Positions 39,937 to 59,700 of a stretch of DNA of 64,000 bases are shown piece after piece. The stretch's first letter is position 1. Each line of letters starts with the position of its first letter. Under the pieces are notes generated by a model. That model was not told where the DNA came from, ran no database searches, and saw only the letters and a program-made list of their open reading frames with translations. The DNA lies in contig OZ244744.1 in NCBI GenBank assembly GCA_965219455.1, forward strand, positions 4,896,001 to 4,960,000, given 5' to 3'. This DNA comes from Candidatus Latescibacterota bacterium (GTDB lineage: Bacteria; Latescibacterota; UBA2968; GCA-2709665). The position numbers were made by a program, and so were the translations under genes.

Positions 39937-39990
39937 AATACAAGGAAGTCATGGATAATTCAGCCCCATTGGTTGCCGACGGCGCGCGGG

Positions 39991-40171
39991 CCTGCCCTCT
40001 GCCGCTGACGCCTGGTACCAGTCGGACAGCGTGAGAATCGGCTACGAGATCAGCTTCACCCGGTACTTCTACAAGCCCCAGCCGATGCGGACTCTGAAGG
40101 AGGTCCGAGCTGTCATTCTTGCGCTGGAGAAAGAAAAAGAAGGGTTGTTGGCGGAGATTATCGTGCTATGA
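39991..40171 (+). pseudogene. hsdM: hsdM 3' fragment with its own stop
   Basis: DAWYQSDSVRIGYEISFTRYFYKPQPMRTLKEV...GLLAEIIVL*, homologous to about 47775-47940. Confidence 0.88.
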
Positions 40172-41058
40172 CATCAGACGTACTCGACCACGCCGATCGG
40201 CGCATCCGGCGCTACATCCGCGCCAGGCAGAAGCTGATTGCGCTGTTGGAGGAGCAGAAGCAGGCCATCATCCACCAGGCCGTCACGGGACAGATCGACG
40301 TCCGAACAGGCCGGCCCTACCCGGCCTACAAGGACTCCGGTGTGGAGTGGCTGGGGGAAGTACCGGAGCATTGGCAGATCGCCGCTTTGCACCACAGATA
40401 TTCGCAGTGTCTTGGTAAAATGCTCGACTCCAAACGAATCACCGGCAACTACTCGCTTCCGTATCTGCGAAATGTTGACGTTCAGTGGGATCAGATCAAC
40501 ACTAAAGACCTTCCAACTATGGACATTGCGCCCGACGAGTATGAGCGCTACACCGTTCAACATGGTGACTTGCTGGTATGCGAAGGAGGAGAGATAGGAC
40601 GCTGCGCGCTTTGGTCAGGAGGACTACCCAGATGCGGATTTCAAAAAGCGCTGCACCGTCTCCGGCCACGGAATGCCCGTCAGGATATGCCACGCTTTAT
40701 GTACTATGCCCTTCGTGCCGCCGCGAAAGCCGACGCTTTTAATGATGGACATCTGAGTACTATCGCTCATTTGACTGGTGAAAAGCTGAGAGTACACCAC
40801 TTTCCATCCCGCCAGTAGCGGAGCAAGAGTTGTTAGTGCGTTTTCTTGATGGCGTTGTTGAGTAGATTGACCATACGGTTTCTCGCGTTCACCGCCAAAT
40901 CGACCTCCTCAACGAATGGCGCACCCGCCTGATCGCGGATGTCGTCACCGGCAAGCTAGATGTGCGCGAGGCGGCGGATGAACTGCCTGAGGACGACGTC
41001 CAGGACGATGCCGACGAATCGGAAGCAGAGTACACAAGCGAGCATCCAACGATGTAGG
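40168..41058 (+). pseudogene. hsdS: Half hsdS (conserved region, TRD, C-terminal conserved region)
   Basis: YKDSGVEWLGEVPEHW, TRD, frameshift near 40810, in-frame TAG near 40863, RLIADVVTGKLDVREAA. Confidence 0.88.
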
Positions 41059-41081
41059 GGCGACCCGCCGGTCGCCCCTAC
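41054..41081. repeat. GTAG-type REP palindrome, copy 2
   Basis: GTAGGGGCGACCCGCCGGTCGCCCCTAC (one mismatch to copy 1). Confidence 0.88.
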
Positions 41082-41160
41082 CGGACCTCCCTCGCCGCCG
41101 CAGGTGTTGCCCATCATAGATGCCTATATTGTGCCACACAAAAACTGTGAAGCTGTGACT

Positions 41161-41523
41161 ATGAGAAATATTACCGTATCCGTCGACGAGCAGACACACC
41201 GGCTCGCACGTATCCGTGCGGCGGAGATGGACACATCGGTATCGGCCCTGGTGCGCGACTACCTGAGAGATCTGGCAGCCGAGCCGAATGCGGGGGGCGA
41301 AGCCAGCGCCGAGTCTAGCGAAACCATCTATCAGCGTCGGTGCAGGCTGCTGCGGGAAGTGCTCGCAGACTTCGATAGGCAGGGTATTGGGCTGCGGATG
41401 TCCGATAACCTGCCCAGGGAGGCGTTGTACGACCGCGTCGCTGCAAGGGCCGAGGCTGTCGCCGAGCGCGAGCGGCAGCGCAACATCTCTGAAGCACTCA
41501 GAGTCTCGCCATGCGATTCGTAG
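41161..41523 (+). CDS. Ribbon-helix-helix-type antitoxin, copy A
   Basis: MRNITVSVDE...AAEMDTSVSALVRDYL...REALYDR; upstream of and overlapping PIN. Confidence 0.82.
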   Translation: MRNITVSVDEQTHRLARIRAAEMDTSVSALVRDYLRDLAAEPNAGGEASAESSETIYQRRCRLLREVLADFDRQGIGLRMSDNLPREALYDRVAARAEAVAERERQRNISEALRVSPCDS

Positions 41524-41936
41524 ATACCAATGTCCTGCTGTATGCTGTCAGCGAGGTCTCGGAGGAGGCCGACAAGCGAGCGCGGGCGCTGGAAGTCCTG
41601 ACGGAACCCGACCTCGCCGCGTCAGTTCAGGTGCTGCAGGAGTTCTATTACCAGGCCACCCGGCCGACACGGATCCGCAGTCTTTCCGGCAATCGAGCTT
41701 TGCAATTCCTGGAGCCGATTCTGCTGTTCCGGATTCAGACCATGACGATGGACGTTTTTCTCGAGGCCATCGCCATCAGCCATCGTTTCCGGCTGTCCTA
41801 TTGGGACGGCGCAATTCTCGCCGCGGCCCGCGCCCTGGGTTGCGATGCCGTGTATTCCGAAAATATGAGTACGGAACAGGACTACGATGGCCTCCGGGTC
41901 ATAAACCCGTTCACGGACCAGCAGGCTTCACGGTGA
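41511..41936 (+). CDS. PIN-domain (VapC) toxin, copy A
   Basis: FVDTNVLLY, SVQVLQEF, SYWDGAI, VYSEN, INPF. Confidence 0.92.
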   Translation: MRFVDTNVLLYAVSEVSEEADKRARALEVLTEPDLAASVQVLQEFYYQATRPTRIRSLSGNRALQFLEPILLFRIQTMTMDVFLEAIAISHRFRLSYWDGAILAAARALGCDAVYSENMSTEQDYDGLRVINPFTDQQASR

Positions 41937-42025
41937 ACGCCGACACTTCCGAACGCCTTTAACATGGTAATTGTGACACGAAGAAGATTCACTAAGTTCA
42001 TAATTTATACGAGGTGTTGTGCCAG

Positions 42026-42451
42026 ATGAGCCACTCGACTCCACACTGGAGGTACAGATTCTCCAACTACAAGCGGGCCTTTACGCTGCTGCGGGAGGCG
42101 ATAGAGACGATGAGTGAGTCCGGACTGAGCCAACTTGAAAAGGAAGGAACCATCCAGAGGTTCGAATACACGATGGAACTTGCGTGGAATGTCATGAAAG
42201 ACTATTTGGAGCACGAGGGCGTCGTCTTTGACCAAACCACCCCGAGGAACGTCATCAGAAAGGCCTTCGAGACCAACCTAACCAGGCACGGGAGGGTATG
42301 GATGGACGCACTCGATGCTCGAAACAAGATGTCCCACACCTACAATTTCCAGCAATTTGAAGAGGTAATAGAGAATATCCGCAGCCGATATCTTGCCGCT
42401 ATGGAAGACCTTCACCTGGTTCTTTTGGAGAAGGAGGCGGACACTGACTGA
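42026..42451 (+). CDS. HEPN / nucleotidyltransferase substrate-binding protein (HI0074 family), copy A
   Basis: IQRFEYTMELAW, RNKMSHTY (R-X4-H). Confidence 0.9.
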   Translation: MSHSTPHWRYRFSNYKRAFTLLREAIETMSESGLSQLEKEGTIQRFEYTMELAWNVMKDYLEHEGVVFDQTTPRNVIRKAFETNLTRHGRVWMDALDARNKMSHTYNFQQFEEVIENIRSRYLAAMEDLHLVLLEKEADTD

Positions 42452-42785
42452 CCACGGACTTTTCGATGAGGAGCTCGAGACGATTCGGGCCGTTTTGGCC
42501 AACTTCGCCGATGAGATCACACAGGTTGACCTGTTCGGATCAAGGGCCACGGGAAACTACCGAGGGAATTCCGATGTTGATCTTGTAGTTCACGGAGATG
42601 TCAAGGATACCACCATCGACAGACTGTGGACTTTGTTCAACGAGAGCAATCTGCCCTTCTCGGTTGATGTTGCCAGCTATGAAAGCATGACACATCGCCC
42701 CCTGAAGGAGCATGTCGACGCTGTTGGGCAATGCCTGTTTTCGGCTCAGGAGATCCGGAAAGGCAAGAAAACGCGGGGCACATAG
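42444..42785 (+). CDS. Minimal nucleotidyltransferase (MNT), copy A
   Basis: LFGSRATGNYRGNSDVDL; RBS AAGGAGG; start is CTG here and TTG in copy B. Confidence 0.85.
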   Translation: MTDHGLFDEELETIRAVLANFADEITQVDLFGSRATGNYRGNSDVDLVVHGDVKDTTIDRLWTLFNESNLPFSVDVASYESMTHRPLKEHVDAVGQCLFSAQEIRKGKKTRGT

Positions 42786-42902
42786 ACGCACCAAAGCGCG
42801 TTCCAGTTACCCTCTTTGGTGCCGATGACTCATGGTTTCCGAGTGCTTGAGATCGGGTATTGACGCAGTCCTGAAGAGTGCCTTCGGCAGGATTGAAGTT
42901 GA

Positions 42903-43475
42903 ATGACCACCACAGACACCACCGAACGCGGGCTTGAACGCCTGATTTGCACCGCCCTGACGGGCCAGGACGGTCCCGCGCGGCGCGGTTTCCTGACCCG
43001 GCTCCAGGGCGAAGTCAGCAAACGCGGAACCATCGACGTACTGCGCAACGGGATCAAGCACCAGGCAATGCAAAAGATCATGCTGGCGGACGAGGATGCC
43101 GAGATCGATCCGGTACCCACGGCCGGCGGGGAGCATCACCCTGAACCGGAATTGGATCGGCTCTCCAACATACTCCGAGTCTTCAACGAATACTTTGGTG
43201 ACATTGAATGGGAAGATGAAGACCGCGTGCGGCAACTCATCATAGAGACGATTCCGGCCCGCGTCGCCGCCGATACAGCGTTCCGGAACGCACGGGAGAA
43301 CTCCGACCGGCAGAATGCCCGGATCGAGCACGACAAGGCGCTTGTGCGGGTGATGACCGGAGTGATGCGTGACGACACCGAACTGTTCAAACTGTACATG
43401 GATAACCCGGGCCTCAATCGCTGGATGGCCGATACCGTGTTCAGCCTTGCCTACGAGCCGACTGTCGCGCCTTAA
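42903..43475 (+). pseudogene. hsdR: Internally deleted hsdR (in-frame N-terminal and C-terminal pieces)
   Basis: Three blocks homologous to about 56690-56755, 56939-57030 and 59290-59690; nuclease and helicase motifs absent. Confidence 0.88.
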
Positions 43476-44113: not shown

Positions 44114-44570
44114 ATGCCCTTGACTGATGTTGAATTTGCTTCCATCCTGAACGACAATACTAAGCGAATCGCAGATGACGTTATCTGGACCGAGGACGAG
44201 GATCACTCCCCGGCGTTGGAATTCCGCGTAGACGTCACGTCGGAGAGTGGTTGGCCGTTGTTTGTAAAGGGACGTTTTAACTCGGCTGCTCGAACGTTAA
44301 ATTATGCGCTCATTTTGACGACGGAAGGCCGCATATATGGTCTCGACCTTGGAAAGGATCATCACAATCCACAGTGTGATCAGGTCAGGAAAAATACAAG
44401 CATACGTGGTCAGAACGTTACAGCGATAAAGAAGCATATGTGCCCGACGACATAGATGCACCTCTTTTGGATCCGGTGTCAGTTTGGACAGAGTTCTGCG
44501 TTGAAGCAGGCATTCAACATGATGGCATAATGAATGAGCCGCCCGCTATTCAGGTGGAGCTTTGTAATGG
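44114..44570 (+). pseudogene. Frameshifted hypothetical gene (DUF6978-like)
   Basis: HHNP then a frameshift near 44388; KHTWSERYSDKEAYVPDDI...FCVEAGI continues in another frame. Confidence 0.55.
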
Positions 44571-45346
44571 ACAGCGAAGAATTGTGTCGGAACTTGGAGA
44601 CGGAAATCGGAACCTTGTTCACGTGTTCTGAACAAGGTGAGTATCAGCGAATTCGCACTCCTTATCTATATCCGGATGGCGACAATATCGATCTCTTCTG
44701 TAAGGCGGCCGGTGACGTCATGACGGTAACCGACCTTGCGGAGACCACAGGTTGGCTGCGCATGCAGTCGCCATCTCTACGTCGTTCGCCGAAGCAGAGA
44801 CGGCTTATAGAAGATGCCTGTGTGACGCATGGTATCGAGTTTTACCGCGGGATGCTTCAGGCGCGATGTCGTCAGAGTGATCAGTTGGCGAATGTCGTTA
44901 CACGAGTTGCTCAGGCTGCACTTCGGGTATCCGACCTGTGGTTCACTTTCCGAACTCAGTCGGTCCAATCCATCACGGATGAAGTAGCGGATTTTCTCTC
45001 GGAGCGTGAGTTGGGCTTCGAGCGTTCCGAAAGGCTTGCCGGCCGATCAGGACGCGGTTGGACGGTCGATTTCCACGTCAGGGCGAAGTTTAGAAGCTCG
45101 TTGGTACAGGTGCTTAGCACTGGGAATCGCGCGGCAGGGCACAGAGTCTCCGAGCACGTGTTGGCCGCTTGGCATGATCTGAATCACCTTGCGGTGGGAC
45201 CGGAAGCGTTGACTTTCGTCTCCCTGTTCGATGATACCGCGGATGTCTGGGCAGATGAGGATTTTCGGCTCGTCGAGCCGTTATCCCTGGTTTCTCGCTG
45301 GTCGAGGCCGGATGAGTTTGCCACTGTTGTCAGTGGAGCGGCGTGA
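44567..45346 (+). CDS. DUF1828/DUF1829-like protein
   Basis: IRTPYLYPDGDNID, VTDLAET, GRSGRGWTVDF; RBS GGAG. Confidence 0.72.
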   Translation: MDSEELCRNLETEIGTLFTCSEQGEYQRIRTPYLYPDGDNIDLFCKAAGDVMTVTDLAETTGWLRMQSPSLRRSPKQRRLIEDACVTHGIEFYRGMLQARCRQSDQLANVVTRVAQAALRVSDLWFTFRTQSVQSITDEVADFLSERELGFERSERLAGRSGRGWTVDFHVRAKFRSSLVQVLSTGNRAAGHRVSEHVLAAWHDLNHLAVGPEALTFVSLFDDTADVWADEDFRLVEPLSLVSRWSRPDEFATVVSGAA

Positions 45347-45571
45347 GAAATGCCATAACTCCGCGCAAGGGCTTGGAAGCCTAACCCGCAGGGCCCTGTT
45401 AGGCCGTTCGTGTTAGCCACGTAAGATATGCGACGCTTTGCTACACAGTGTATGGTCGCTACAAAAATGCCAGCAACTGTTTAATTTCCTCTTTAATAGG
45501 ATTCGTAGACCGTATTTCCTGGATACCACTAAGTGATGAGACCACTTCCACTACGAGTCTCATGTAAAATA

Positions 45572-45738
45572 TCGGCGGGAGCGGGCGCGGATTCAAGCTG
45601 GGACCGCCTATTGCCGATTCTCTGAGCGACGTGATCCTCGGCCGGACGCCCGCGTTCGATCTGCACCCGTTCCGCCCCAGCCGGTTTCTGGAGGGCGAAC
45701 AGTTCTCGTCCGCGTGGGGGGGAGGTAACCGGGGGTGA
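45572..45738 (+). pseudogene. Duplicated 3' end of the FAD oxidoreductase gene
   Basis: Homologous to 37490-37656, with substitutions. Confidence 0.9.
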
Positions 45739-45917
45739 GGCGAGCGGAGATCATCTTTAAGGTAACCGAGGCGATCGAAGGCGGATACGATGCCAGAGCG
45801 CCTTGCTGTGACATCTTCACCCAGCGGGACGACCTCAAGGCCTACGGTCCAAGATGCGGTGCGATGTTATTTCGACGAAGGCGGCGCCCGAGGGGTGATT
45901 CGCCTTCATCTCGTTAG
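45735..45917 (+). pseudogene. Degenerate hicB-like copy
   Basis: EIIFKVTEAIEGGYDARA then frameshifts; homologous to 38520-38732. Confidence 0.75.
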
Positions 45918-45948
45918 AGAAGAGGCCAACCAGGTGTTTTGATCACCC

Positions 45949-45976
45949 GTAGGGGCGACCGGCCGGTCGCCCCTAC
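45949..45976. repeat. GTAG-type REP palindrome, copy 3
   Basis: Perfect 28-bp palindrome 11 bp before the hsdM ATG. Confidence 0.9.
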
Positions 45977-45987
45977 AAGGAATCCCG

Positions 45988-48432
45988 ATGACAAGCAACG
46001 CCAACCTGAATTGGATCGCGAATTATATTTGGGGAATCGCAGACGACGTGCTGCGCGATCTGTACGTTCGCGGCAAGTACCGCGACGTGATCCTGCCGAT
46101 GACCGTTCTGCGACGGCTCGACGCGGTGCTGGAGGATAGCAAGCAGGCGGTCCTGGACATGCAGGCTTCACTCGACAAAATCGGCTTGGTCGACCAACAC
46201 GAACCCCTGCGTCAGGCGGCGGGACAGGACTTTTACAATACCTCCAGGTTCACGCTGCGCGACCTGCGCGCGCGCGCCAATCGCCAGCAGCTCGAGGCCG
46301 ACTTCCGGGCCTGGCTGGACGGGTTCTCGCCCAACGTCCAGGACATCCTCGAAAACTTCGAGTTCCGCAACCAGGTTTCGCGGTTGTCCAGGGCCGATGC
46401 CCTGGGCACGCTGATCGAAAAACTCACCTCGCCCGACATCAACCTGAGCCCAGCCCCGGTGCGCAACGCCGACGGCTCGGTCAGGCACCCCGGCCTCGAC
46501 AACCACGGTATGGGGACGATCTTCGAAGAGTTGATCCGGCGCTTCAACGAGGAGAACAACGAGGAGGCGGGCGAGCATTGGACCCCGCGCGACGCCGTGA
46601 CCCTGATGGCGAAGCTGGTCTTCCTGCCCGTCGCCGACCGGATCAAGTCCGGCACCTACCTGATCTACGACGGAGCCTGCGGCACCGGCGGCATGTTGAC
46701 CGTGGCCGAGGACGTGCTTCAGTTGCTCGCCGCCGAGCGCGGCAAGCAGGTCTCCACCCACCTCTATGGCCAGGAGATCAATGCGGAGACGTACGCCATC
46801 TGCAAGGCCGACCTGTTGCTGAAGGGTGAAGGGGACGCCGCCGACAACATTGTGGGGGGCCCGGAGCACTCCACCCTGTCCAACGACGCCTTCCCGTCCC
46901 GCGAGTTCGACTTCATGCTCTCCAATCCGCCCTACGGCAAGAGCTGGAAGACCGATCTGGAGCGCATGGGCGGCAAGAAGGAGATGCGGGATCCGCGCTT
47001 TGTGATCGAGCACGCGGGCGATCCCGAATATTCCCTGGTCACCCGCTCCAGCGACGGCCAGATGCTCTTTCTCGCCAACAAGCTCTCCAAGATGAAGGAG
47101 GGCGGGAGCCGCATCGCCGAGGTACACAACGGCAGTTCCTTGTTCACCGGAGACGCCGGCCAGGGCGAGAGCAACATCCGGCGTTGGATCATCGAAAACG
47201 ACTGGCTGGAGGCGATCGTCGCCCTGCCGCTCAACATGTTCTACAACACCGGGATCGCCACTTACGTCTGGGTGCTAACCAACCGCAAGCCAGAGCATCG
47301 CAAGGGCAAGGTGCAGTTGATCGACGCCACCGGGTGGTACCGCCCGCTGCGCAAGAATCTGGGCAAGAAAAATTGCGAGCTCGGCGAAGAGGACAATCAG
47401 CGTATCTGCGACACCTTCCTCGCCTTTGAGGAAAGCGAGCAGAGCAAGATCTTCGACAACGCCGCCTTCGGCTACTGGAAGGTGACGGTCGAGCGTCCGT
47501 TGCGGCTCGAAGGGATTGACCCCAATCGCGCCTACAAGGCCGCCGAAATTAAGAAACTGAAAGAGAGTAGTGAGCGCAACGAAACCGCGCCGCCCGTCAT
47601 CAAGAAGATCCACAAGAAAGGCACCGAGGCTGACCCACTGCGCGGCCGGTTCGAGGTCACTATCAACGGCAGGCCTGCGGTGGTCGAATACGAACCGGAC
47701 ACCGATCTGCGCGACACAGAACAGATTCCGCTCCAGGAAGAGGGCGCCATCGAAGCCTTCCTCCGGCGAGAGGTCCTGCCCTATGCCGCTGACGCGTGGT
47801 ACCAACCGGACAGCGTGAAGATCGGCTACGAGATCAGCTTCACGCGATATTTCTACAAACCTCAGCCTATGCGGACCTTGGAGGAGATCCGGGCGGACAT
47901 CCTGGCGCTGGAACAAGAAACCGTCGGATTGCTCGACGATCTGCCGATGGTGCGCGAACCGTCGGTTGTGTACGGCAAGCCGCGCATCTACGTGGATACC
48001 TCGGTGATCGGCGGGTGTCTGGACGAGGAGTTTCGCGAACCCTCATGCCGGTTGATCGAGAAGTGCGCTCGTGGAGAGATGACGCTGGTGGTGTCGTCGG
48101 TCACGTTGGAGGAACTGGAAGCCGCGCCGCGAGCCGTCCGCAATGTACTGCGGTCCATCCCTCTCGAGAACCTGGAGAGAGTCGAAGTGACGGAAGAAGT
48201 GCAGAATCTGGCGGATCGGTATATTGAGAGCAGCGCGCTCGCGGAGCCGATGCGCACAGATGCCGAGCACATCGCCGCCGCCACCGTGGCCGGCGTGGAC
48301 GTGCTAGCGAGCTGGAACTTCCGGCACATGGTGAACCTGTGGCGAATCAGGATGTACAACGCGGTGAACCGGCGCATGGGATACCCCCCGGTGGACATGC
48401 GCAGCCCAAAGGAGCTTGTAAATGAAGAATAG
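45988..48432 (+). CDS. hsdM: Type I RM methyltransferase HsdM with in-frame C-terminal PIN domain
   Basis: AGEHWTPR, YDGACGTGGML, NPPY, MFYNTGIATY; then IYVDTSV...DAEHIAAA...SWNFRHMVN PIN domain. Confidence 0.93.
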   Translation: MTSNANLNWIANYIWGIADDVLRDLYVRGKYRDVILPMTVLRRLDAVLEDSKQAVLDMQASLDKIGLVDQHEPLRQAAGQDFYNTSRFTLRDLRARANRQQLEADFRAWLDGFSPNVQDILENFEFRNQVSRLSRADALGTLIEKLTSPDINLSPAPVRNADGSVRHPGLDNHGMGTIFEELIRRFNEENNEEAGEHWTPRDAVTLMAKLVFLPVADRIKSGTYLIYDGACGTGGMLTVAEDVLQLLAAERGKQVSTHLYGQEINAETYAICKADLLLKGEGDAADNIVGGPEHSTLSNDAFPSREFDFMLSNPPYGKSWKTDLERMGGKKEMRDPRFVIEHAGDPEYSLVTRSSDGQMLFLANKLSKMKEGGSRIAEVHNGSSLFTGDAGQGESNIRRWIIENDWLEAIVALPLNMFYNTGIATYVWVLTNRKPEHRKGKVQLIDATGWYRPLRKNLGKKNCELGEEDNQRICDTFLAFEESEQSKIFDNAAFGYWKVTVERPLRLEGIDPNRAYKAAEIKKLKESSERNETAPPVIKKIHKKGTEADPLRGRFEVTINGRPAVVEYEPDTDLRDTEQIPLQEEGAIEAFLRREVLPYAADAWYQPDSVKIGYEISFTRYFYKPQPMRTLEEIRADILALEQETVGLLDDLPMVREPSVVYGKPRIYVDTSVIGGCLDEEFREPSCRLIEKCARGEMTLVVSSVTLEELEAAPRAVRNVLRSIPLENLERVEVTEEVQNLADRYIESSALAEPMRTDAEHIAAATVAGVDVLASWNFRHMVNLWRIRMYNAVNRRMGYPPVDMRSPKELVNEE

Positions 48433-48658
48433 TGAGAGCAGCGCAAAGGCTTTCGACTGCGTAAAGTGGACGCGCGAGATCCGGGACCGGATCAACGCGA
48501 AACTGGAGGGGATGTCCCCGGAAGAGCGGCGTCGGCGGCTCAATGCGGCTGTCCGCAAGGATCCCTACTTTGCTCGCATTCCGAAGTCCCGGGTTGTGCG
48601 ACCTTGGCAGGACGATGGGGCAAGCGACGGCGGCCGATCCGGCGCCGAGGGCGATTGA
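48422..48658 (+). CDS. Putative antitoxin of the fused PIN
   Basis: KAFDCVKWTREIRDRI...MSPEE; overlaps the PIN stop, RBS AAGGAG. Confidence 0.68.
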   Translation: MKNSESSAKAFDCVKWTREIRDRINAKLEGMSPEERRRRLNAAVRKDPYFARIPKSRVVRPWQDDGASDGGRSGAEGD

Positions 48659-48692
48659 TGATGAAGATCGGGAAGGGAACGAAGGCTCTCGG

Positions 48693-48816
48693 CGCAAGCT
48701 GGAACTTCAGGCACATGGTGAACTGGCGGCGCATTAGAGTGTACAACGAGGTCAATCGTCAAAATGGATACCCCGCTATTGACATTCGCACGCCGGAGGA
48801 AATCGTCCATGATTGA
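48693..48816 (+). pseudogene. Second PIN C-terminal fragment
   Basis: ASWNFRHMVNWRRIRVYNEVN...YPAIDIRTPEEI, homologous to 48307-48432. Confidence 0.8.
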
Positions 48817-49024
48817 AGACCCCCGCCACAAAAAGAATTTCGACTGTGTAGAATTCATGCGCCTGGCCCGCGCCCGCATTACCGCCGAAACCGCCGACAT
48901 GACTGCTGACGAACGGATAGCGTGGTTCAATTCCAGGCGGTATTCGGACCCCGTGCTGGAAGCATTGGCCGCGCGGATACGCAAATCGACGCAGGACAGG
49001 CCAACAGATCGTCGCGACGGCTGA
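48809..49024 (+). CDS. Second putative antitoxin (FDCV-type)
   Basis: KKNFDCVEFMRLARARI...MTADE; RBS GGAGG. Confidence 0.65.
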   Translation: MIEDPRHKKNFDCVEFMRLARARITAETADMTADERIAWFNSRRYSDPVLEALAARIRKSTQDRPTDRRDG

Positions 49025-49075
49025 CCCGAAGGGAAACTAAAGCGCAAGGGCGAGCGATGCCCTGCAATATGGACG

Positions 49076-49633
49076 GAAGACCCGGAGAATCCTGCCGTCA
49101 GGGACGTCCAGGATCCATACGCTGTAGGGGCGACCGGCCGGTCGCCCGCAGTGGGCCACGACCCGGGTCAGTCTGCGCGATGATGGCCGTATTCAAATCT
49201 GCCGCAACCAAACGGATCAACGCCATGCGCGGCACGCTACGAACACGTTTTCCGGAATGAATCCGTGCTGGATCGGATTCGACAACACATCGCGGATAAC
49301 CCGGCGGGATGGTTTGAAGACCCGGAGAATCCTTCCGTCAGGGACGTCCAGGATCCACTCGGCGCACGGGCGACCGGCCGGTCGCCCCTACATTAGTGAA
49401 TGATGATGACGTCAAACCCTGACCAAACACATTAACGCCATGCGCCGCACGCCCGGTGCGCCGGTATGGCAGCGCAATTACTACGAACACGTTATCCGGA
49501 ACGAATCCGCGCTGGATCGGATTCGGCAATACATCGCACATAACCCGGCCGGATGGTCTGAAGACCCGGAGAATCCTGCCATCAGGGATGTCCAGGAACA
49601 ATTCGGCATAGGGGCGACCGGCCGGTCGCCCGC
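49076..49633 (+). repeat. Three tandem RAYT-3'-end plus REP units
   Basis: GAAGACCCGGAGAATCCT at 49076, 49316 and 49560, each followed by a REP (49124-49147, 49368-49391, 49609-49631); WQRNYYEHVIR...YIAHNP. Confidence 0.85.
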
Positions 49634-49768
49634 ATTGGTATATAATTCGATTACCGTAGATCTCGAATTTTACCCTGGGCCGCTGCACACGCTGGGAGAG
49701 ATTCGGGATGATATTATAGCCCTTGAGAAAGAGCCGGAGGGGTTGTTGGACGAAATTCTGAGGGCATA

Positions 49769-50101
49769 ATGAACGCCTCCTGCGATCCGGAGAAACATCA
49801 CCGTCGGTCAATCCGATTGCGCAACTACGACTATTCACGAGCCGGCGCATACTTTATCACCGTCTGCACAAAGGGCCAGGAATTACTGTTTGGCGAAGTG
49901 AATAATGGTGAGGTGGAGTTGAACGAATTTGGCCGGATGGCCGCAGAGGAATGGCTAAATTCTGCACGGATCCGCATCGAGATCGAACTGGACGCATGGA
50001 TTGTCATGCCGAACCACGTTCATGGCGTCGTCATAATTGTCAACAAACGCTGTAGGGGCGACCGGCCGGTCGCCCCTGGTTTACGGGCCGGGCCAGGCTA
50101 G
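49769..50101 (+). mobile_element. REP-associated tyrosine transposase (RAYT, HUH/Y1), N-terminal half
   Basis: HRRSIRLRNYDYSRAGAYFITVCT, VMPNHVHG (HUH); homology ends at a REP at 50052-50077. Confidence 0.88.
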
Positions 50102-50327
50102 GCCAATGGATAGTCGCGACGCGAGAACGAGGTGACGGTACAGATCTGTAAAAATGATTCACGCCGACATCCACGCGCTGGAACAAGAAGCCGAGGGGAT
50201 GTTGGCGCAGACTATTGGCGACTGCGAAAGGACGTGAGCACATTGCGTTTACAGTGTAGGGGAACGCAAATGCGGGGTCGACTCTAAATGGCTACTTACA
50301 TGTGACCCTCTTTCTTTTGGTGCCAAG

Positions 50328-51155
50328 ATGTCTTTTTCAAAATTACTTAAGAAAAAAGTCCGAGAACGCGCACTCGATCACTGTATCTATTGCCGAAAAA
50401 TATCCGGCAGTTTGCATATACATCATATCATTCAAGAAGGAGACGGCGGGCCAGATACAGAGGATAACGCTGCACCACTTTGCCCTAGCTGTCACGGTGA
50501 TTTTGGGGGTAACCCGGAGAAGCGTTCTCGGATTCGAGAAATGCGAGATCGCTGGTACGATATCTGCGAGAATTGTGTAATTGGATCAAGAAGATATCCT
50601 ATGTCAGGTTCTCTTGAACTAAATCGATATTCATTTGCCAGTGACGAGCTTGTTCATCCTCTGATTGTTCGTGAATTGTTAGGGTGGATTTCCGATTCAT
50701 CAGAGACGGTCGTTGGAGTGGATCTTGAATCGGCTAACAGCAGCAATCGGTTCCACGGAGACTTTGAGATTGATGATCGCGATGGGAGAAAGTGGGTAAC
50801 GTGGTCAGGTTCTGAGAGTCTCGGAAGTGAGTTCTTCACGTACGCTCATATCGTCACTTCTCCGACGGGAGTTGAAATGGTAGAGTGTTACGTTCGTGGT
50901 GGAGGTAGTGGAGTGTTTGGAAGCGTTGGACTCTTTCTTCTGGATCCAGATCGAGCTTTAGACGAATCTTGCTCAGGAAGATTGTCCACGCGGGATCGCC
51001 AAGTCCTTAAGATTCTCGGATCAATTGTTTTAGGCGATAGATACGAAGGTAAATTAACGTATGACGATAAGCTACTTACCATTGGCCGTGATGAAGGCAG
51101 AATCAAATCTCGTGGACGCATTTCAAAGTCTTGCCGCGAGTTTTTCGTTTTATAA
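50328..51155 (+). CDS. HNH endonuclease domain protein
   Basis: CIYC...IHHII...GG...DNAAPLCPSCH; unrecognised C-terminal domain; low GC. Confidence 0.8.
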   Translation: MSFSKLLKKKVRERALDHCIYCRKISGSLHIHHIIQEGDGGPDTEDNAAPLCPSCHGDFGGNPEKRSRIREMRDRWYDICENCVIGSRRYPMSGSLELNRYSFASDELVHPLIVRELLGWISDSSETVVGVDLESANSSNRFHGDFEIDDRDGRKWVTWSGSESLGSEFFTYAHIVTSPTGVEMVECYVRGGGSGVFGSVGLFLLDPDRALDESCSGRLSTRDRQVLKILGSIVLGDRYEGKLTYDDKLLTIGRDEGRIKSRGRISKSCREFFVL

Positions 51156-51373
51156 CGATTTTGCATTGTCTCTACAATCCACATATCCTTCAAGCGGACG
51201 GTACGGAACTACAGAGATGGATCAAACCGGTCGGGGGGAAGTTGACAACCGACACAGCAGAAGCGAGCAATTTCTGGTACGCGAATAACCTTCGACGTAC
51301 TCGAAGACGGAATGTCGTGGATTACATTGCATGCTCGCGTTGGCTCGGACGGAAATGGATGGCAAGGAAGCCG

Positions 51374-52210
51374 ATGAACTGTCCAAAGGGTAGTGAGATT
51401 TCGATCGGGGAATGGCTCGATCAAATCGGGGCTACGAAAAAGTATGTCGGTTGCGATGGAGACGGCCCACCGGACTGGGAAATTCAGTACAAGGGTTCCA
51501 CGATTGGTGTTGAGGTGACTCTCCTTCATAACACGGAAGGGTGGAGGAGGACCAATAGGGGAAGAAGAAGAGAGAAGGCCTTTGAAGGGGAACTCAGGCG
51601 CTTGATCGAAGAGATGTCCAAGGAGGGAGGGCAGGAGTGGCATACATTATGCGAGTACGACCCCAGAGTGCCTCGGCCGCCGAGTGATGATGATTGGAAG
51701 GCGCGCGTCCGTGACGCGCTTCGCGATTCACCCTCAGGTGATGGTATTCAATTGTTAACAGAGGGCGATATACAGAGGCGGGGATTGGGGCGCGGAATAG
51801 TGCTGGAGTTTATCCCGGTGTGTGACGGGGAAGGCTTCACAAGAGTCAGCGTCGACGAAGGCTCCTTGGTTGGCACAACGCTTTCCGAACGGCTTATTGC
51901 CAATGTGGACGAAAAAGCAGATAAGGTCAGAAAGGGCAAGAGATCGAAGGAATACAATCAGTGGTGGCTCGTCTTTGACGATGAGATCCTTATGGTTCCC
52001 TTTTCGAATCTTGTCCCCGAAGAAAGATCTGAGATCGTTGCGAGGGTGCATGAATGTGACGGAAGACACCAGTGGAGCAAAATCGTCATAGTTAGCCGAA
52101 TGCAAACCGGTCCGCCACCGGCGAAGCAGAATAAGTGGTTCTACGCTCCGTGGGAGAATCCCAAGCATCCTTCACTTCCGCCGAGCCCGTATTCGGCTAC
52201 GACTACCTGA
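51374..52210 (+). CDS. Hypothetical protein, possible PD-(D/E)xK-like nuclease fold
   Basis: PPDW...IGVEVT motif, K..K...Y..WWLV; start placed at ATG 51374 after AGGAAG. Confidence 0.55.
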   Translation: MNCPKGSEISIGEWLDQIGATKKYVGCDGDGPPDWEIQYKGSTIGVEVTLLHNTEGWRRTNRGRRREKAFEGELRRLIEEMSKEGGQEWHTLCEYDPRVPRPPSDDDWKARVRDALRDSPSGDGIQLLTEGDIQRRGLGRGIVLEFIPVCDGEGFTRVSVDEGSLVGTTLSERLIANVDEKADKVRKGKRSKEYNQWWLVFDDEILMVPFSNLVPEERSEIVARVHECDGRHQWSKIVIVSRMQTGPPPAKQNKWFYAPWENPKHPSLPPSPYSATTT

Positions 52211-52244
52211 CGGCCGCTGACTCAGCACACAGTCGAAGGATTGT

Positions 52245-52411
52245 TTGAGGGAATCGACTGAAATCAGTTTGGAAGTAGCGGAAGCGTGGGAGGGCGGTTA
52301 CGACGTCAGCGAGCGCCGACAGGGAATCTTCACGCTGATAGACGCCCAGAACGACCTGCGGGCCAAAGGTGTGAGACGCGGTACTCTGCCCACTTCGACG
52401 ACACCATCCCG
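52245..52411 (+). pseudogene. Degenerate hicB-like copy before hsdS
   Basis: TEISLEVAEAWEGGYD...GIFT...NDL, then GTGAGACGCGGTACTCTGCCCACTTCGACGA matching about 38640-38672. Confidence 0.7.
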
Positions 52412-52460
52412 CAGTCCAAGTTGGTTGATTCCTTTTTGTCCACGATGAGATTGTCTTGGT

Positions 52461-53789
52461 ATGAATTCATATATCGCTGGTGAATTAAGGCCTTATCAGG
52501 GAATGAAGGACTCAGGAGTAAAGTGGCTGGGCAAAATCCCTTCGCATTGGAAAGTATTACCTAACCGTACACTCTTTGAGGAGGTTAAGGAACGCGATCA
52601 CCCTGAAGAACAAATGTTATCTGTAACGATCAAGCGTGGTGTCATACGGCAGAATGAGCTTTTGGATGAAAGCTCACAGAAGGACAGTTCGAACTTAGAT
52701 AAGTCGGCATACAAACAGGTCAAGCCTGGAGACATCGCATATAACAAAATGAGAGCATGGCAGGGTGCCATGGGAGTTTCCGAGTACCAAGGCATCGTCA
52801 GTCCTGCCTATGTTGTTGAGCGGCCTCGTAAGGGAGTTAACTCCAACTTTTCCCATTATTTGCTTCGCACACCTGGATTCGCGAAAGAGGCAGAACGGTG
52901 GTCATACGGGATTAATTCGGACATGTGGAGCCTACGGCCTGAACACTTCAAGATGATCTATACTTGCCTTCCTCCCCTCCAGGAACAAGCCGCCATCGTC
53001 CGTTTCCTCGACCACGCCGACCGGCGCATCCAGCGCTACATCCGCGCCAAGCAGAAGCTGATTGCGCTGCTGGAGGAGCAACGAAAGGCTGCTACACAAG
53101 AAGTGATTCAATCACGAAGTGTTACCTCAAATAAAATCGAGGTCGTTGCAGACTTGGTCGAAAGGCCGATTCACCGTGTGGCCACCGACACTTACACCCC
53201 GATTGGTCTTTACAATCGAGGACGTGGCATCTTTAAAAAGGAACCTCGAAACGGCGGTGAATTGGGAGATTCCGATTTCTTTTGGGTCGAAGAAGGTGAC
53301 TTGGTTCTCAGCGGGCAGTTCGCTTGGGAAGGTGCAATCGCTCTGGCAGGTGGCACTGAGTTTGGGTGCGTTGCAAGTCACCGCTATCCGATCCTACAGG
53401 GTAGGCACAATGTCTTGGATTCAGGATTCTTGCTGGCGTTTTTTCAGACGGATTGGGGCCAGCTTCTTCTTGATCACCACTCAAGAGGTGCGGCGGGAAG
53501 GAACAGGCCTCTCAATGCTAGAACACTTTTGAAAGAGAAGATACCGCTGCCACCTCTTCGCAATCAGATGGATATAGTTAAAATGCTGCGACGCGAAAAA
53601 ATGGTGCGCCAACAGGTCGAAGACTCCAAGAGACTGCTGAATGAATACCAGACCCGCCTAATTTCCGATGTCGTCACCGGCAAGCTCGATGTGCGCGAGG
53701 CGGCGGCTGAACTGCCGGAGGAAGACGTTCACCGCGACACCGAGAAATCGGCGGACGAGTACGCAATCGAAACGGACGTTACCGTATGA
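52461..53789 (+). CDS. hsdS: Type I RM specificity subunit
   Basis: MKDSGVKWLGKIPSHW, two TRDs, LPPLQEQAAI, RLISDVVTGKLDVREAA. Confidence 0.93.
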   Translation: MNSYIAGELRPYQGMKDSGVKWLGKIPSHWKVLPNRTLFEEVKERDHPEEQMLSVTIKRGVIRQNELLDESSQKDSSNLDKSAYKQVKPGDIAYNKMRAWQGAMGVSEYQGIVSPAYVVERPRKGVNSNFSHYLLRTPGFAKEAERWSYGINSDMWSLRPEHFKMIYTCLPPLQEQAAIVRFLDHADRRIQRYIRAKQKLIALLEEQRKAATQEVIQSRSVTSNKIEVVADLVERPIHRVATDTYTPIGLYNRGRGIFKKEPRNGGELGDSDFFWVEEGDLVLSGQFAWEGAIALAGGTEFGCVASHRYPILQGRHNVLDSGFLLAFFQTDWGQLLLDHHSRGAAGRNRPLNARTLLKEKIPLPPLRNQMDIVKMLRREKMVRQQVEDSKRLLNEYQTRLISDVVTGKLDVREAAAELPEEDVHRDTEKSADEYAIETDVTV

Positions 53790-54688: not shown

Positions 54689-54906
54689 CGGAAACCAAAC
54701 TGGTCATTTGGCATCCACGACGGTGCTTACGGACGCGTCCATCACTGCCGCTCGACGCCCCGGCAAGATCCCATAGGTCCGAGTATGTGTACCGTGGCGC
54801 AGGCACGACGCTTGCGGTAGCGTGATAAACCAGCCCTTGATGTAAAACTCTCAGAGTTCGCGCGCTGCCGCTGGAGTTGCCCGTCGGACGATTAAATCTT
54901 AAATTG

Positions 54907-54925: not shown

Positions 54926-54935
54926 GGCTGTGATT

Positions 54936-56689: not shown

Positions 56690-59600
56690 ATGACCGTCTC
56701 CGACACCACTGAACGCGGGCTTGAACGCCTGATTTGCACCGCCTTGACAGGCCAGGGCTGCGAGGCCCCCGCTGCAGGCACCGTGGGAGAACCGCCCGTG
56801 GGTTATGGCGGTGTCGGCTGGAGTTGCGGCAATCCCCACGACTACGACCGTGAGTACTGCGTCGATCTGGTGCAACTGTCGGCATTCCTGCGCGACACCC
56901 AGCCCGAAGCCGCCGAGGCGTTGACGCTTTCCGAAGAAGGTCCGGTGCGACGTGCGTTTCTGACCCGGCTTCAGGGCGAAATCAGCAAGCGCGGCACCAT
57001 CGACGTGCTTCGCAACGGGATCAAGCACCAATCGTTCCACCTGGATCTGTTCTACGGCACCCCGTCGGCCGGCAACCCGCAGGCACAGGAGTTGTTCGAG
57101 CAGAACCGTTTTACCGTCACGCGGCAGCTTCGCTACAGCCGGGACGAGGCGCAGCGGGCGCTGGACATAGGTCTGTTCATCAATGGTCTGCCGGTGTTCA
57201 CGTTTGAGCTGAAAAACAGCCTCACCAAACAGACGGTGGACGATGCGGTCTGGCAGTACCGAAAGGACCGGAACCCTCGCGAAAAGTTGTTTGAATTCGG
57301 GCGATGCATGGTGCACTTCGCATTGGATGAGCGCGAGGTGCGTTTTTTTTTTGTACACACCTGAAGGGTAAGGCGTCCTGGTTTCTTCCCTTTAACCGCG
57401 GCTGGAACGACGGCGCGGGCAACCCGCCCAACCCGCACGGTCTTTCGGTCTCCTATCTCTGGCGTGAAGTACTCACGCGGGAGAGTCTCACCAACATCCT
57501 CGAGAATTACGCCCAGGTGGTGGCGTCGAAGGACGAAAAGAGCGGCAGGAAGCGGAGTACCCAAATCTGGCCGCGCTTCCATCAGCTCGACGTGGTGCGC
57601 CGTCTGCTGGCCGACGCGGGCGCCCGCGGTGCAGGTCAGCGCTATCTGATCCAGCATTCCGCAGGCAGCGGCAAGAGCAACTCCATCGCCTGGCTCGCCC
57701 ATCAACTGATCCGGCTGGAGAAGGACGATGCTCCCGTTTTCGACTCAATTATCGTCGTAACGGACAGGCTCATCCTGGACCGTCAGATCCGCGACACAAT
57801 CAAACAATACGCCCAGGTGGCGGCAACGGTAGGGCATGCCGACGGCTCGGGCGATCTGCGCCGGTTCATCGAAAGCGGCAAAAAGATTATCATTTCCACC
57901 GTCCAGAAGTTCCCTTTCATTCTGGACGAGATCGGCAACGAGCAGCGTGGGAGGCGCTTCGCCATCATCATCGACGAAGCCCACTCAAGCCAGGGGGGCC
58001 GCACCAGCGCAGCCATGGCGCAGGCGCTGTCGGAAGCCGGCGAAGAAGACGATCTGGATACCTTTGAGGACCGGATCAACCGCCTGATGGAGTCACGAAA
58101 GCTCCTTCCCAACGCCAGTTACTTCGCGTTTACCGCCACGCCCAAAAACAAGACGCTCGAGATCTTTGGCGCCGCGGACCCGCAGCCCGACGGTACGGTG
58201 AGGCATCTCGCCTTCCATAGCTACACGATGAAGCAGGCGGTCCAGGAAGGATTTATCCTCGACGTACTCGCACACTACACGCCGGTGGCGAGTTACTACA
58301 AGCTTGCGAAGACGGTTGAGGAGGATCCCGAATTCGACGTTCGGAAGGCGCAGAAGAAGCTGCGTCGTTTCGTGGAGGGCAGCGATCACGCGATTCGGCT
58401 CAAGGCCGAGATCATGGTCGACCATTTTCATGACCAGGTGCTGAAGCAGGGAAAGATCGGCGGCGCGGCGCGGGCGATGGTTGTCACAAATGGCATCGAG
58501 CGCGCGATCCAGTACTTCCATGCCATCCGCGACTATCTCAGGGAGCGCAAGAGCTCTTACGAGGCTCTGGTCGCCTTCTCCGGCGAGCACGACTACGGTG
58601 GCGCCAGGGTAAGCGAGGCGTCGCTGAACGGTCTGCCTTCCTCCCGGATCGCCAAGCGATTCCAGGAGGATCCATACCGGTTCCTGGTGTGCGCTGACAA
58701 GTTTCAAACCGGCTACGATGAGCCCCTGCTGCACACGATGTACGTGGACAAGACGCTGTCAGGAATAAGGGCCGTGCAGACTCTGTCTCGCCTCAACCGG
58801 GCGCATCCCAGGAAACACGACGTGTTCGTGCTCGACTTTTTCAACGACACCGACACCATTCGCGAAGCGTTCGCGGACTTTTACCGGGCGACGATCCTGG
58901 CCGACGAGACCGACCCCAACAAGCTGCACGACCTGCAGGCGGACCTGGACGGCGCGCAGGTCTATTCCGAGGTGCAGATCGACGAGTTTGTCCGGCGCTA
59001 CCTGGACGGCGAGGAACGCGACCGTCTCGATCCGATCCTGGACGCGTGCGTAGCGGTCTATCGGCGGGAGCTGGACGAAGACGGCCAGGTCGCGTTCAAA
59101 GGTAAGGCCAAAGCCTTCGTGCGAACCTACGCCTTTCTTTCTTCCATCCTACCATACAACGACCCCGCATGGGAAAAGCGTTCGATTTTCCTCAACTTCC
59201 TGGTCCCGAAGTTGCCGGCTCCCGAGGAAGAGGATCTCTCCAAAGGTGTCCTCGATGCGATCGATCTCGACAGCTACCGGGTTGAGAAGCAGGCAATGCA
59301 ACGGATCCTGTTGGCGGACGAGGATGCCGAGATCGATCCGGTACCGGCAGCCGGCGGAGGGCATTACCCGGAGCCGGAATTGGATCGACTCTCCAACATA
59401 CTTCGGGTCTTCAACGAGCATTTTGGCGACATTCAATGGGAAGATGAGGACCGCGTGCAGCAACTCATCTTAGAGACCATACCGGCCCGCGTCGCCGCCG
59501 ACACCGCGTTCCGAAATGCACGCGAAAACTCCGACCGCCAGAATGCCCGGATCGAGCACGACAAGGCGCTGGTTCGGGTGATGACTGGAGTGATGAAAGA

Positions 59601-59700
59601 CGACACCGAACTGTTCAAACTGTACATGGATAACCCGGGCTTCAAGCGCTGGATGGCCGATACCGTTTTCGATCTCGCCTACGAACCGGCAGGTACGTAA
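56690..59700 (+). pseudogene. hsdR: Type I RM restriction subunit HsdR, frameshifted at a T10 tract
   Basis: LDIGLFINGLPVFTFELKN nuclease, HSAGSGKS, IIDEAH, FTATP, TGYDEP, QTLSRLNR; frame changes at 57343-57352. Confidence 0.9.

Follow-up and report, generated by a model that had tools for sequence, protein, structure and literature searches.

The window analysed here, a stretch of 64,000 nucleotides (nt) from contig OZ244744.1 of a Candidatus Latescibacterota bacterium, carries a type I restriction-modification (RM) locus in which the methyltransferase subunit gene hsdM continues in frame into a PIN domain that is probably of the VapC type, and the stop codon of this fusion gene is overlapped by a small gene, here called antiA, for a predicted antitoxin. 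In our favoured reading, to which we give a probability of roughly 55%, a toxin-antitoxin (TA) module has been captured by HsdM and serves as an addiction or abortive back-up device of the RM locus. The module would consist of two genes, a VapC-type PIN nuclease acting as the toxin, which here is the C-terminal domain of HsdM, and a small, fast-evolving protein acting as the antitoxin. As long as the operon is expressed, each HsdM-PIN would be neutralised by fresh antitoxin, which is supposed to be labile; if the locus is lost or disrupted, or a phage shuts off the expression of its host, no more antitoxin would be supplied, and the tethered PIN, now freed, would cleave RNA and arrest or kill the cell. 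Two outcomes, which do not exclude each other, may follow: the methyltransferase gene, and the island bearing it, would become addictive, and the module would provide RM with an abortive-infection back-up.

The fusion protein and its small partner

The N-terminal part of the 814-aa fusion protein (Table 1) is recognised by Pfam as HsdM_N (residues 10-146, E 6e-20) and N6_Mtase (172-484, E 1.5e-51), and the PADLOC model MTase_I matches the protein at E 1.5e-237. The S-adenosylmethionine-binding and NPPY motifs, DGACGTGG and SNPPYG, are visible in the translation, and HsdM chains of the PDB align with residues 175-487. The score against the NCBIfam hsdM equivalog, 92 bits, is under its cut-off of 242.75. 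Besides HsdM_N, N6_Mtase and a weak PIN match, Pfam gives one sub-threshold match to an Eco57I methylase, and no ATPase domain was found by it in the fusion protein. Between the methyltransferase core and the last HsdM helix lies a β-rich region of ~160 residues (488-650; 47450-47937), a trait of this HsdM subfamily, which is modelled confidently (pLDDT ~90 at residues 500-610) and to which nothing corresponds in the solved HsdM chains retrieved by sequence. In the same genome, unfused hsdM paralogues and fragments found by tblastn end 3-6 residues past a GLL motif, with GLLGEILGE, GLLAEIIVL or GLLDEILRA directly before the stop; the frame of the fusion runs on beyond this usual end as GLLDDLPMVREPSVVYGKPRIYVDTSVIGGC. 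An earlier note on this DNA had described this in-frame course of HsdM into a PIN domain, the stop of two other hsdM 3′ ends (at 40171 and 49769) shortly after the GLL motif, the PIN motifs DTS, EE, DAEH and SWNFRH, and a small FDCV-type open reading frame (ORF) overlapping the end of the PIN; each of these is present as it described them.

The C-terminal 161 aa alone match PIN and PIN_3 of Pfam weakly (E 2.9e-4; 21.9 and 22.1 bits), and no family for this part was found in NCBIfam, PADLOC or the Atlas. The fold is seen more clearly in an AlphaFold2 model of residues 654-814, which reaches a mean pLDDT of 92.6 on an alignment of 67 sequences. Foldseek gives 36 matches to it in the PDB at E <= 0.001 (best E 1.6e-5, TM 0.5-0.68); nearly all are PINs, mostly of the VapC type, and they include Pyrococcus 1y82, Rickettsia VapC2 (3zvk), P. 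horikoshii VapC4 (5h4g), Salmonella and Shigella VapC, and FitB. Seven positions, D670, E709, D758, W776, N777, F778 and H780, are invariant in 60 fused proteins, and all seven are still invariant or at least 90% conserved once free-standing relatives are added. Fold and conservation together strongly indicate that the C-terminal part is a VapC-type PIN that keeps its putative catalytic residues. A genome-wide tblastn search found no second close PIN in the window's genome. Two distant, free-standing PIN paralogues (27-29% identical) lie elsewhere in this genome, at positions 2047964-2048413 and 5168612-5169079 of contig G000:C1, each with its own small overlapping downstream ORF.

The antiA ORF starts within the fusion gene, with an overlap of 11 nt with the PIN stop, and AAGGAG stands 7 nt ahead of its ATG, so that translational coupling of antiA to the PIN is strongly indicated by the gene layout. 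For comparison, a set of loci was drawn from contigs representing one genome per species, which contain 259 stretches encoding a relative; the best 80 of these form the set. Fused and free-standing PINs alike are followed, in 72 of these 80, by a small ORF whose N-terminus carries K-x-F-D-C-[VI] and whose overlap with the PIN stop is typically 7-10 nt. The small protein belongs to no Pfam, NCBIfam or PADLOC family, and its nearest Atlas clusters are named 'hypothetical protein'. It is the fastest-evolving part of the locus, with a mean pairwise identity of 0.44, compared with 0.56-0.59 in the PIN and 0.70 in an HsdM segment of 200 aa, and its divergence correlates with that of the PIN (Spearman 0.73) better than with that of HsdM (0.37); for PIN versus HsdM the coefficient is 0.40.

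A complex of the PIN and antiA was predicted with an interface score (ipSAE) of 0.79-0.80 in three runs, while the best of three controls scored 0.01; the runs share at least 90% of their contacts, and the pLDDT of the partner is at least 71. The mark used for such complexes was reached by 58 of 80 solved complexes and by 2 of 110 mismatched pairs, counts that are only roughly valid for predictions with their own alignments. On the PIN, numbered from M654, the predicted interface comprises residues 17-19, 22-29, 48-61, 101-107 and 123-124, and takes in the conserved D, E and D and the WN of SWNFRH. The model supports the view that antiA would sit across the active site of the PIN and plug it. 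The suggestion of the earlier note that the downstream gene is antitoxin-like is borne out both by its conservation in 72 of the 80 loci and by this predicted binding over the active site. The PIN tail after SWNFRHMVN was considered as the determinant of antitoxin specificity and was disfavoured, as the divergence of the antitoxin tracks the N-terminal part of the PIN (Spearman 0.74) over the tail (0.58) and the predicted interface lies mainly within residues 17-124. In three gammaproteobacterial fused loci (L042:6635-6931, L048:2979-3275 and L051:6632-6901), the small protein is tandemly duplicated in one ORF with two FD[CS] motifs.

HsdM and PIN are joined by a linker that varies among relatives. 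When 70 sequences are aligned, the stretch behind the last HsdM helix consists of 12-15 variable residues, e.g., PGREPVPVYPKM, LVREPMPAYGKL, MRGESLAEESKL and AESRGRYAVGAL, after which comes the invariant PIN start R[IV]Y[VA]DTSV[IF]GG. A full-length AlphaFold model, used here for the confidence of the terminal helix, the linker and the PIN only and not for PIN-HsdM packing, is confident for the helix (631-649) and the PIN (663-811) and falls under pLDDT 50 at 652-662. The linker contains an ATG at 47947, for which the earlier note had proposed a test as an internal start that would yield the PIN as a separate protein. In most relatives of the same alignment, P, L, T or A stands in place of its Met, no purine-rich ribosome-binding site was seen in the sequence upstream of it, and free-standing PIN relatives begin 2-4 residues ahead of the (I/V/F)Y motif. 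A variable linker, predicted to be disordered, and a non-conserved Met lacking a ribosome-binding site mean that the PIN is most likely produced only as a tethered part of HsdM, on a flexible linker of ~12 residues, so that the sequence argues against the internal start.

The earlier note had also called for a check of reads across the junction. Two parts of the window, 47817-47966 and 47985-48726, recur with 0 differences, and without a listed indel, in contig pieces assembled in Logan from public runs of three studies, so that neither a stop nor an indel appears in the pieces flanking 47967-47984; no listed piece spans these 18 positions themselves, uncovered parts count as evidence of nothing, and the best-matching run may be the window's own source sample. 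A 384-nt contig (47953-48336, 0 differences, depth 2.4) occurs in an RNA run, X9, labelled as a sponge metatranscriptome. Such contigs show neither the ends nor the strand of a transcript, and may derive from carried-over DNA. Of the four RNA runs with words in common with the window, two, X9 among them, bear the label 'sponge metagenome', and the isolate names of many related records are presumably those of sponge-symbiont bins. A scan of 45300-49500 for promoters and terminators scored no better than shuffled sequences.

Spread of the fusion and exchange of its cassettes

When residues 640-813 were searched against a collection of 5.8 billion proteins, restricted to lengths of 447-1425 aa, the PIN part was matched by 186 proteins at E <= 1e-3. 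Among the 120 long matches listed, 119 carry PF02384, and 117 have a PIN part 56-74% identical to that of the window; the other three are near-identical (99-100%), among them P0001 and P0003, which come from other assemblies. A precomputed Pfam match to PIN exists for only 6 of these 120 fused relatives, so that the architecture is easy to miss; as the PIN lies below the Pfam thresholds in most members, catalogues of domain architectures would pass over the HsdM-PIN family. As to a second fusion partner, the other long PIN carriers, P0286 and P0344, show no Pfam domain. Free-standing relatives are numerous, with 569 proteins of 83-266 aa at E <= 1e-3, and are annotated by their sources as 'VapC family toxin' or 'PIN domain protein'. 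A 214-aa query of junction plus PIN matches 4858 representatives at the same threshold, of which some may be plain HsdM tails matched by its first 53 residues; as the representative library merges fused forms into few 50% clusters, this number sizes the PIN family and not the fusions.

In 54 of the 80 loci, an uninterrupted frame of at least 814 aa includes the full PIN. Two others (L012 and L041) are cut by the contig end, three (L034, L038 and L057) have the junction in frame with a shorter frame upstream, and frameshifts interrupt L056 at the junction and L061 within the PIN. The record titles of the loci name Gemmatimonadota (Longimicrobiales, Palauibacter), Bryobacterales and Terriglobia of the Acidobacteriota, Candidatus Latescibacterota, several Gammaproteobacteria, and Rhodothermales. 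Within the genus of the window, 8 of 14 other genomes have the full fusion in open frames of 827-835 aa, and in 4 of the 14 (G002, G003, G007 and G013) the orthologous hsdM is unfused, with frames of 662-738 aa whose last 52 residues are 80-90% identical. In the 19 genomes of the sister family, the query used for these genomes finds only free-standing PINs and unfused hsdM. In a quick IQ-TREE analysis, all 59 fused PINs fall in one 72-row branch (SH-aLRT 96). The other rows of this branch are two orphan or second PINs, five short proteins, and six locus PINs scored as standalone, of which at least three belong to fused loci as degraded or second copies. A single origin of the fusion, or a few, with later spread and swapping of cassettes would agree with this topology. 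The check for the fusion in other genomes that the earlier note had proposed is answered by the 186 proteins, the 54 loci and the 8 congeneric genomes. That note had called the fusion 'derived', which holds in the evolutionary sense and fails for a local, recent event; by its distribution, the fusion is an old, widespread architecture and not a recent event in the window's genome.

The PIN and its antitoxin behave as a cassette that is exchanged at the end of hsdM. The HsdM segment of the window is 89-91% identical to those of the Latescibacterota loci, whose PINs are only 51-58% identical to that of the window. The window PIN is 69-74% identical to those of most Gemmatimonadota and Bryobacterales loci (61-68% in L035 and L015), and there the HsdM segment is 60-69% identical. 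Sliding windows put the switch at residues ~661-690, within the conserved RIYVDTSVIGGC..EFRE stretch, upstream of which the protein is Latescibacterota-like and downstream of which it is Gemmatimonadota/Bryobacterales-like, and in the quick tree the window PIN clusters with Palauibacter and Longimicrobiales PINs, apart from the Latescibacterota ones. On these comparisons, the window fusion is a chimera of HsdM and PIN lineages. Behind antiA stand the remnant of another PIN, of the type here called B, an intact orphan antitoxin (antiB) of the type found in the Latescibacterota fused loci, and a displaced hsdM 3′ end (Table 1); genome-wide tblastn found no full B-type PIN in the window's genome.

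Similar arrays occur elsewhere. A scan with hidden Markov models (HMMs) used a looser definition, under which any complete hsdM 3′ end with a complete PIN immediately behind it counts as fused whether or not the frame is kept. It scores 60 of the 80 loci as fused, and in 13 of these (L014, L020, L023-L026, L028, L035, L040, L049, L055, L057 and L058) the scan finds extra downstream antitoxins, PIN 3′ fragments or hsdM 3′ fragments. Ten partial PIN fragments start at HMM position 113 (SWNFRH; four), 122-127 (three) or 94-102 (three). L086, of the same genus, and L040 hold a complete orphan module behind the main hsdM-PIN-antitoxin, composed of the last ~45 hsdM codons, a linker, a whole second PIN and an antitoxin, and five short database relatives (P0121, P0123, P0130, P0131 and P0134) keep pieces of the hsdM 3′ end. 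Recombination may take place at conserved stretches, namely the hsdM 3′ end, DTSVIGGC and SWNFRH, whereby an incoming cassette would replace the resident one and push PIN fragments, orphan antitoxins and old hsdM 3′ ends downstream; a turnover in which orphan antitoxins are kept would fit repeated replacement under conflict. A 232-aa database protein, P0149, has an antitoxin-like N-terminal half fused in frame to a complete PIN, as if neighbouring cassettes had been joined. Repeats of ~95 nt ending in the palindrome GGGCGACCGGCCGGTCGCCC, with three copies in 49060-49638, and beside them a fragment of a REP-associated tyrosine transposase (NCBIfam E 6e-7, below the cut-off) are found in 49060-49640 and 49769-50101 and also at 45940-45975; repeats and fragment are located at the breakpoints of the displaced cassettes.

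The surrounding locus

Table 1. Coordinates of the features discussed, in positions of the window, with the basis of each assignment
Feature	Position	Strand	Basis
hsdM-PIN fusion gene, 814 aa: type I RM methyltransferase subunit with C-terminal PIN	45988..48432	+	ORF, Pfam, PADLOC, relatives
HsdM_N (residues 10-146) and N6_Mtase core (172-484)	46015..47439	+	Pfam; DGACGTGG and NPPYG motifs
Last HsdM helix, residues 631-649, EEIRADILALEQETVGLL	47878..47934	+	Full-length model (overall confidence low); unfused paralogues and orthologues stop within few residues
Linker, residues 650-665, DDLPMVREPSVVYGKP	47935..47982	+	pLDDT <50 at 652-662; variable in alignment; contains ATG 47947
Approximate recombination crossover, residues ~661-690	47968..48057	+	Sliding-window identities, segment identities, PIN tree
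VapC-like PIN, residues 666-814 (predicted)	47983..48429	+	AlphaFold2 model, Foldseek, invariant columns
antiA, 78 aa, FDCV motif, predicted antitoxin	48422..48658	+	Ribosome-binding site, overlap, homologues, predicted complex
Displaced 3′ remnant of B-type PIN, last ~40 codons from SWNFRH	48694..48816	+	tblastn 65% over residues 121-160; direct repeat D12; HMM positions 113-152 in L081
Orphan antitoxin antiB, 71 aa, intact, ATG 48809	48809..49024	+	ORF; aligns with small ORFs of L020, L031 and others
Displaced hsdM 3′ end, unfused type (ending GLLDEILRA, stop)	49668..49769	+	tblastn; HMM hsdM3 positions 27-56 in L081
hsdS, same locus	52461..53789	+	Pfam Methylase_S
hsdR, split in two frames	56690..59700	+	Frameshift in T10 run 57343-57352

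The remaining genes of the locus strongly indicate, by their domains and order, an otherwise ordinary type I RM system. In 14 fused loci annotated with Pfam, the usual order is hsdM-PIN, small ORF, hsdS and then hsdR where the flank reaches; hsdS lies downstream in 12 of the 14 and HsdR domains are within the flank in 4. Two of these four (L003 and L043) encode a full-length HsdR with the HSDR_N nuclease and SWI2_SNF2, L046 has HSDR_N and SWI2/SNF2 domains on an N-terminal 462-aa ORF at the locus end, and L039 has a partial ORF only. In the window, Pfam finds HSDR_N on 56690-57364 and SWI2_SNF2, ResIII and T1R_D3 on 57517-59700, and tblastn with an intact HsdR switches frame at ~57346. This change of frame in a T10 run may be a homopolymer sequencing error, the mark of a pseudogene, or a phase-variable restriction switch.

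Some loci carry further genes between the small ORF and hsdS, encoding a GmrSD-like protein, a KAP NTPase, an AAA protein with an S8 peptidase, or a REP-associated transposase, and in some a Schlafen/AlbA_2 gene lies between hsdS and hsdR; no secretion genes were seen by Pfam among the neighbours examined. The window itself encodes an HNH-domain protein (275 aa) and a 359-aa family-less protein between the antitoxins and hsdS (50328-52210), and a 300-aa family-less protein after hsdS (53786-54688). It contains two tandem, paralogous RM islands with direct repeats 80-96% identical, of which the one at 37501-43475 is degraded and the one at 45583-59700 is fuller. Of the degraded island there are left hsdM fragments (37796-38211 and 39980-40171), a partial hsdS (40168-40818), and an hsdR shrunk to a 190-aa remnant of N-terminus plus C-terminus (42903-43475). 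Directly upstream of hsdM-PIN, at 44114-45346, two genes match the PADLOC candidate defence system PDC-M24 (PDC-M24A, E 1.5e-37; PDC-M24B, E 6e-104, also Pfam DUF1828), and the same DUF1828 gene stands ahead of hsdM-PIN in L025. Other TA pairs crowd the islands at 38520-39936, 41160-41936, 42014-42785 and 55063-56560: a weak HicA-like one, DUF433 with DUF5615/PIN_10, an RHH-like protein with a classical PIN (two copies), and a HEPN-type NTase_sub_bind protein with a nucleotidyltransferase (two copies).

Alternative readings and known systems

Several points weigh against a captured TA module. First, the PIN scores lie below the Pfam gathering cut-offs of 23.6 (PIN) and 27 (PIN_3), and of the four canonical acidic residues three have putative counterparts (D670, E709 and D758), and the fourth may fall in the invariant SWNFRH, at N777 or H780. 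Second, the small protein has no DNA-binding domain recognisable by Pfam, NCBIfam or PADLOC and lies downstream of the toxin, unlike canonical VapB. Third, the score of the predicted complex is a model confidence, to which solved VapBC complexes may have contributed some memory effect; against such an effect stands that the small protein belongs to no known family. Fourth, the full-length model (mean pLDDT 57.8) leaves the methyltransferase core unresolved and is silent on PIN-HsdM contacts, probably because its alignment of 60 sequences, 74-87% identical to the window protein, is shallow. Fifth, hsdR is frameshifted here, which makes a defence role of the whole locus in this genome uncertain, and orphan arrays occur mostly in Latescibacterota loci, so that the cassette behaviour may not be general. 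Toxicity, RNase activity, neutralisation and a link to phage or plasmid loss are what we infer, and since the fusion is conserved across phyla, its functional coupling to the RM enzyme could be closer than addiction by itself would require.

Such a coupling is the core of a reading that we regard as doubtful, in which the tethered PIN guards the RM system by reporting the state of the type I enzyme and causes abortive infection, in analogy to PrrC with EcoprrI. The trigger would be phage anti-restriction proteins, such as DNA mimics, bound to the M2S1 complex, or its stalling or disassembly, upon which the antitoxin would be displaced or two PINs would dimerise. This is favoured by the covalent tether to HsdM, which goes beyond adjacency and is conserved across at least five phyla, and by the single branch (SH-aLRT 96) of the 59 fused PINs, because of which the fused state appears to be stably inherited. 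The PIN follows directly on the last HsdM helix, which in solved type I structures packs against HsdS; an M2S1 complex would thus place its two PINs side by side. PrrC itself is a separate protein that is not known to have an antitoxin, and unlike it the PIN here keeps a dedicated one. The linker, disordered by prediction, varies in sequence, a free-standing pair of the same PIN and antitoxin is found in many phyla, and cassettes move between HsdM backgrounds (Spearman 0.40 for PIN and HsdM versus 0.73 for PIN and antitoxin), the window fusion being chimeric; such exchange is hard to square with a co-evolved regulatory interface between PIN and HsdM. The precedent is that PrrC is masked by the RM enzyme EcoprrI and is unmasked and activated by T4 Stp (PMC12707154; 10.1101/2024.01.29.577857; here and below, statements from cited papers refer to excerpts of their text). 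The earlier note had proposed a guard of this PrrC-like kind as well as an addictive RM locus. No result supports the former, and the four observations just given argue against it; the latter fits a TA module captured by HsdM, the best explanation at hand.

It is unlikely that the module is a purely selfish hitch-hiker, that is, a TA cassette which landed at the hsdM 3′ end, lost the intervening stop, brings neither benefit nor coupling to RM or host, and persists as the fusion supplies a promoter and linkage to a mobile RM island. Such a history would suit the abundance of free-standing modules (569 proteins; 4858 representatives), the mixed state of the orthologous hsdM within the genus, which carries the PIN in 8 of 14 genomes and lacks it in 4 of 14, the crowding of the window region with other TA pairs and repeat elements, and the degraded copies at 37501-43475 and in L056, L061 and L079. 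Against it, the in-frame junction has been kept over 50-70% sequence divergence in several phyla, with the putative catalytic residues invariant, which needs either selection on the fused form or a very effective addiction. Moreover, it overlaps the addiction half of the favoured explanation and differs only in denying a benefit.

A bolder and equally unlikely proposal is that HsdM-PIN is an intracellular counterpart of polymorphic toxins, in which the RM core displays an exchangeable nuclease and M2S1 is the sensor. Phages or rival RM islands that bring anti-restriction proteins or antitoxin mimics would drive a diversification of the antitoxin interface by cassette displacement; when the RM enzyme is inhibited, falls apart or is lost, its two tethered PINs would be set free, and orphan antitoxins would protect against superinfecting islands of older types. 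If true, abortive infection or addiction would here be coupled to RM by a device of a new class, distinct from PrrC.

There is little to be said for the PIN as a working part of the restriction-modification enzyme, either as a DNA or RNA nuclease at sites bound by the methyltransferase or as a structural element, with the small protein as a regulator or assembly factor. PIN-HsdM-HsdS operons devoid of an obvious restriction subunit have been reported and PINs raised as possible restriction modules (PMC5499597), and hsdR is frameshifted in the window. However, among the fused loci with a long enough flank, L003 and L043 carry a full-length HsdR with its own HSDR_N nuclease, for which the PIN does not stand in, and L046 the N-terminal part; the closest structural relatives of the PIN are VapC toxins, the same pair of PIN and small protein occurs in standalone loci that lack RM genes, and the small protein is predicted to cover the active site. 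An artefact, in which a sequencing or assembly error erased the stop between hsdM and a separate PIN gene, can be put aside: a homopolymer frameshift lies nearby (the T10 run in hsdR) and no single listed contig piece covers 47967-47984, yet the same in-frame junction is found in 54 of 80 independent loci and in 99-100% identical proteins from other assemblies (P0001 and P0003), and on either side of it the contig pieces of three studies match the window without a difference or a listed indel.

If the PIN is active, the system would offer a direct test of whether RM loci recruit toxins for their own maintenance or as a back-up for failed restriction; M2S1 with two PINs would be a defined protein for the study of how a toxin is wired to an immune sensor, and the displacement known from polymorphic toxins would be seen to operate inside the cell, with a PIN domain.

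Compared with VapBC, the fusion shares the PIN fold, whose nearest solved relatives are VapC, FitB and VapC4, three conserved, putatively catalytic acidic residues, an adjacent small protein predicted to occlude the active site, and an antitoxin that evolves faster than the toxin. It is unlike VapBC in that the toxin is the C-terminal domain of HsdM and not a free protein, the PIN falls below the Pfam thresholds, and the antitoxin lies downstream, with no detectable DNA-binding domain and no known family. With polymorphic toxins, such as contact-dependent inhibition (CDI) cdiA-CT/cdiI and Rhs, it has in common a conserved N-terminal protein, a variable C-terminal nuclease and an immunity gene immediately 3′, as well as displaced C-terminal fragments and orphan immunity genes downstream, some of which keep a conserved upstream stretch (PMC3482391). 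The fusion differs from them in having no secretion or delivery domains, its carrier being HsdM; as this is a cytoplasmic enzyme subunit without such domains, the conflict would be intracellular. According to the excerpted text of Zhang et al. (2012), polymorphic toxin systems are devoid of PIN domains (PMC3482391).

RM links to TA or abortive modules are known mostly as gene neighbourhoods, with PrrC/EcoprrI as the one well-studied physical coupling. The former are represented by the loci of Matelska et al. (2017), where PIN-like toxins are associated with hsdM, hsdS and hsdR operons as here; those toxins are encoded by neighbouring genes, and a direct TA-RM interaction 'has not been shown yet' (PMC5499597). 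An HsdM-PIN fusion is not mentioned in the excerpted text of that paper, Supplementary Figure S7 lying outside this scope, nor is a PIN fusion to HsdM in that of a 2025 RM review, which treats PrrC as the example of sensing restriction inhibition (PMC12707154); likewise, no description of an HsdM-PIN fusion was found in a literature search whose scope did not extend to supplementary files. As with PrrC/EcoprrI and RloC, a latent RNA-targeting nuclease, predicted as such in the case of the fusion, is physically linked to a type I RM system and encoded inside its locus, and as with PrrC it may form a second line of defence if restriction fails. Unlike PrrC, which combines an ABC-ATPase N-domain with an anticodon-nuclease C-domain, the added domain here is a PIN, covalently fused to HsdM and provided with its own antitoxin. 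The coupling is thus covalent, conserved across several phyla, and accompanied by a natural series of swapped TA cassettes. TA or abortive modules coupled to type I RM are known already; the new elements are the covalent coupling and the polymorphic behaviour of the cassette.

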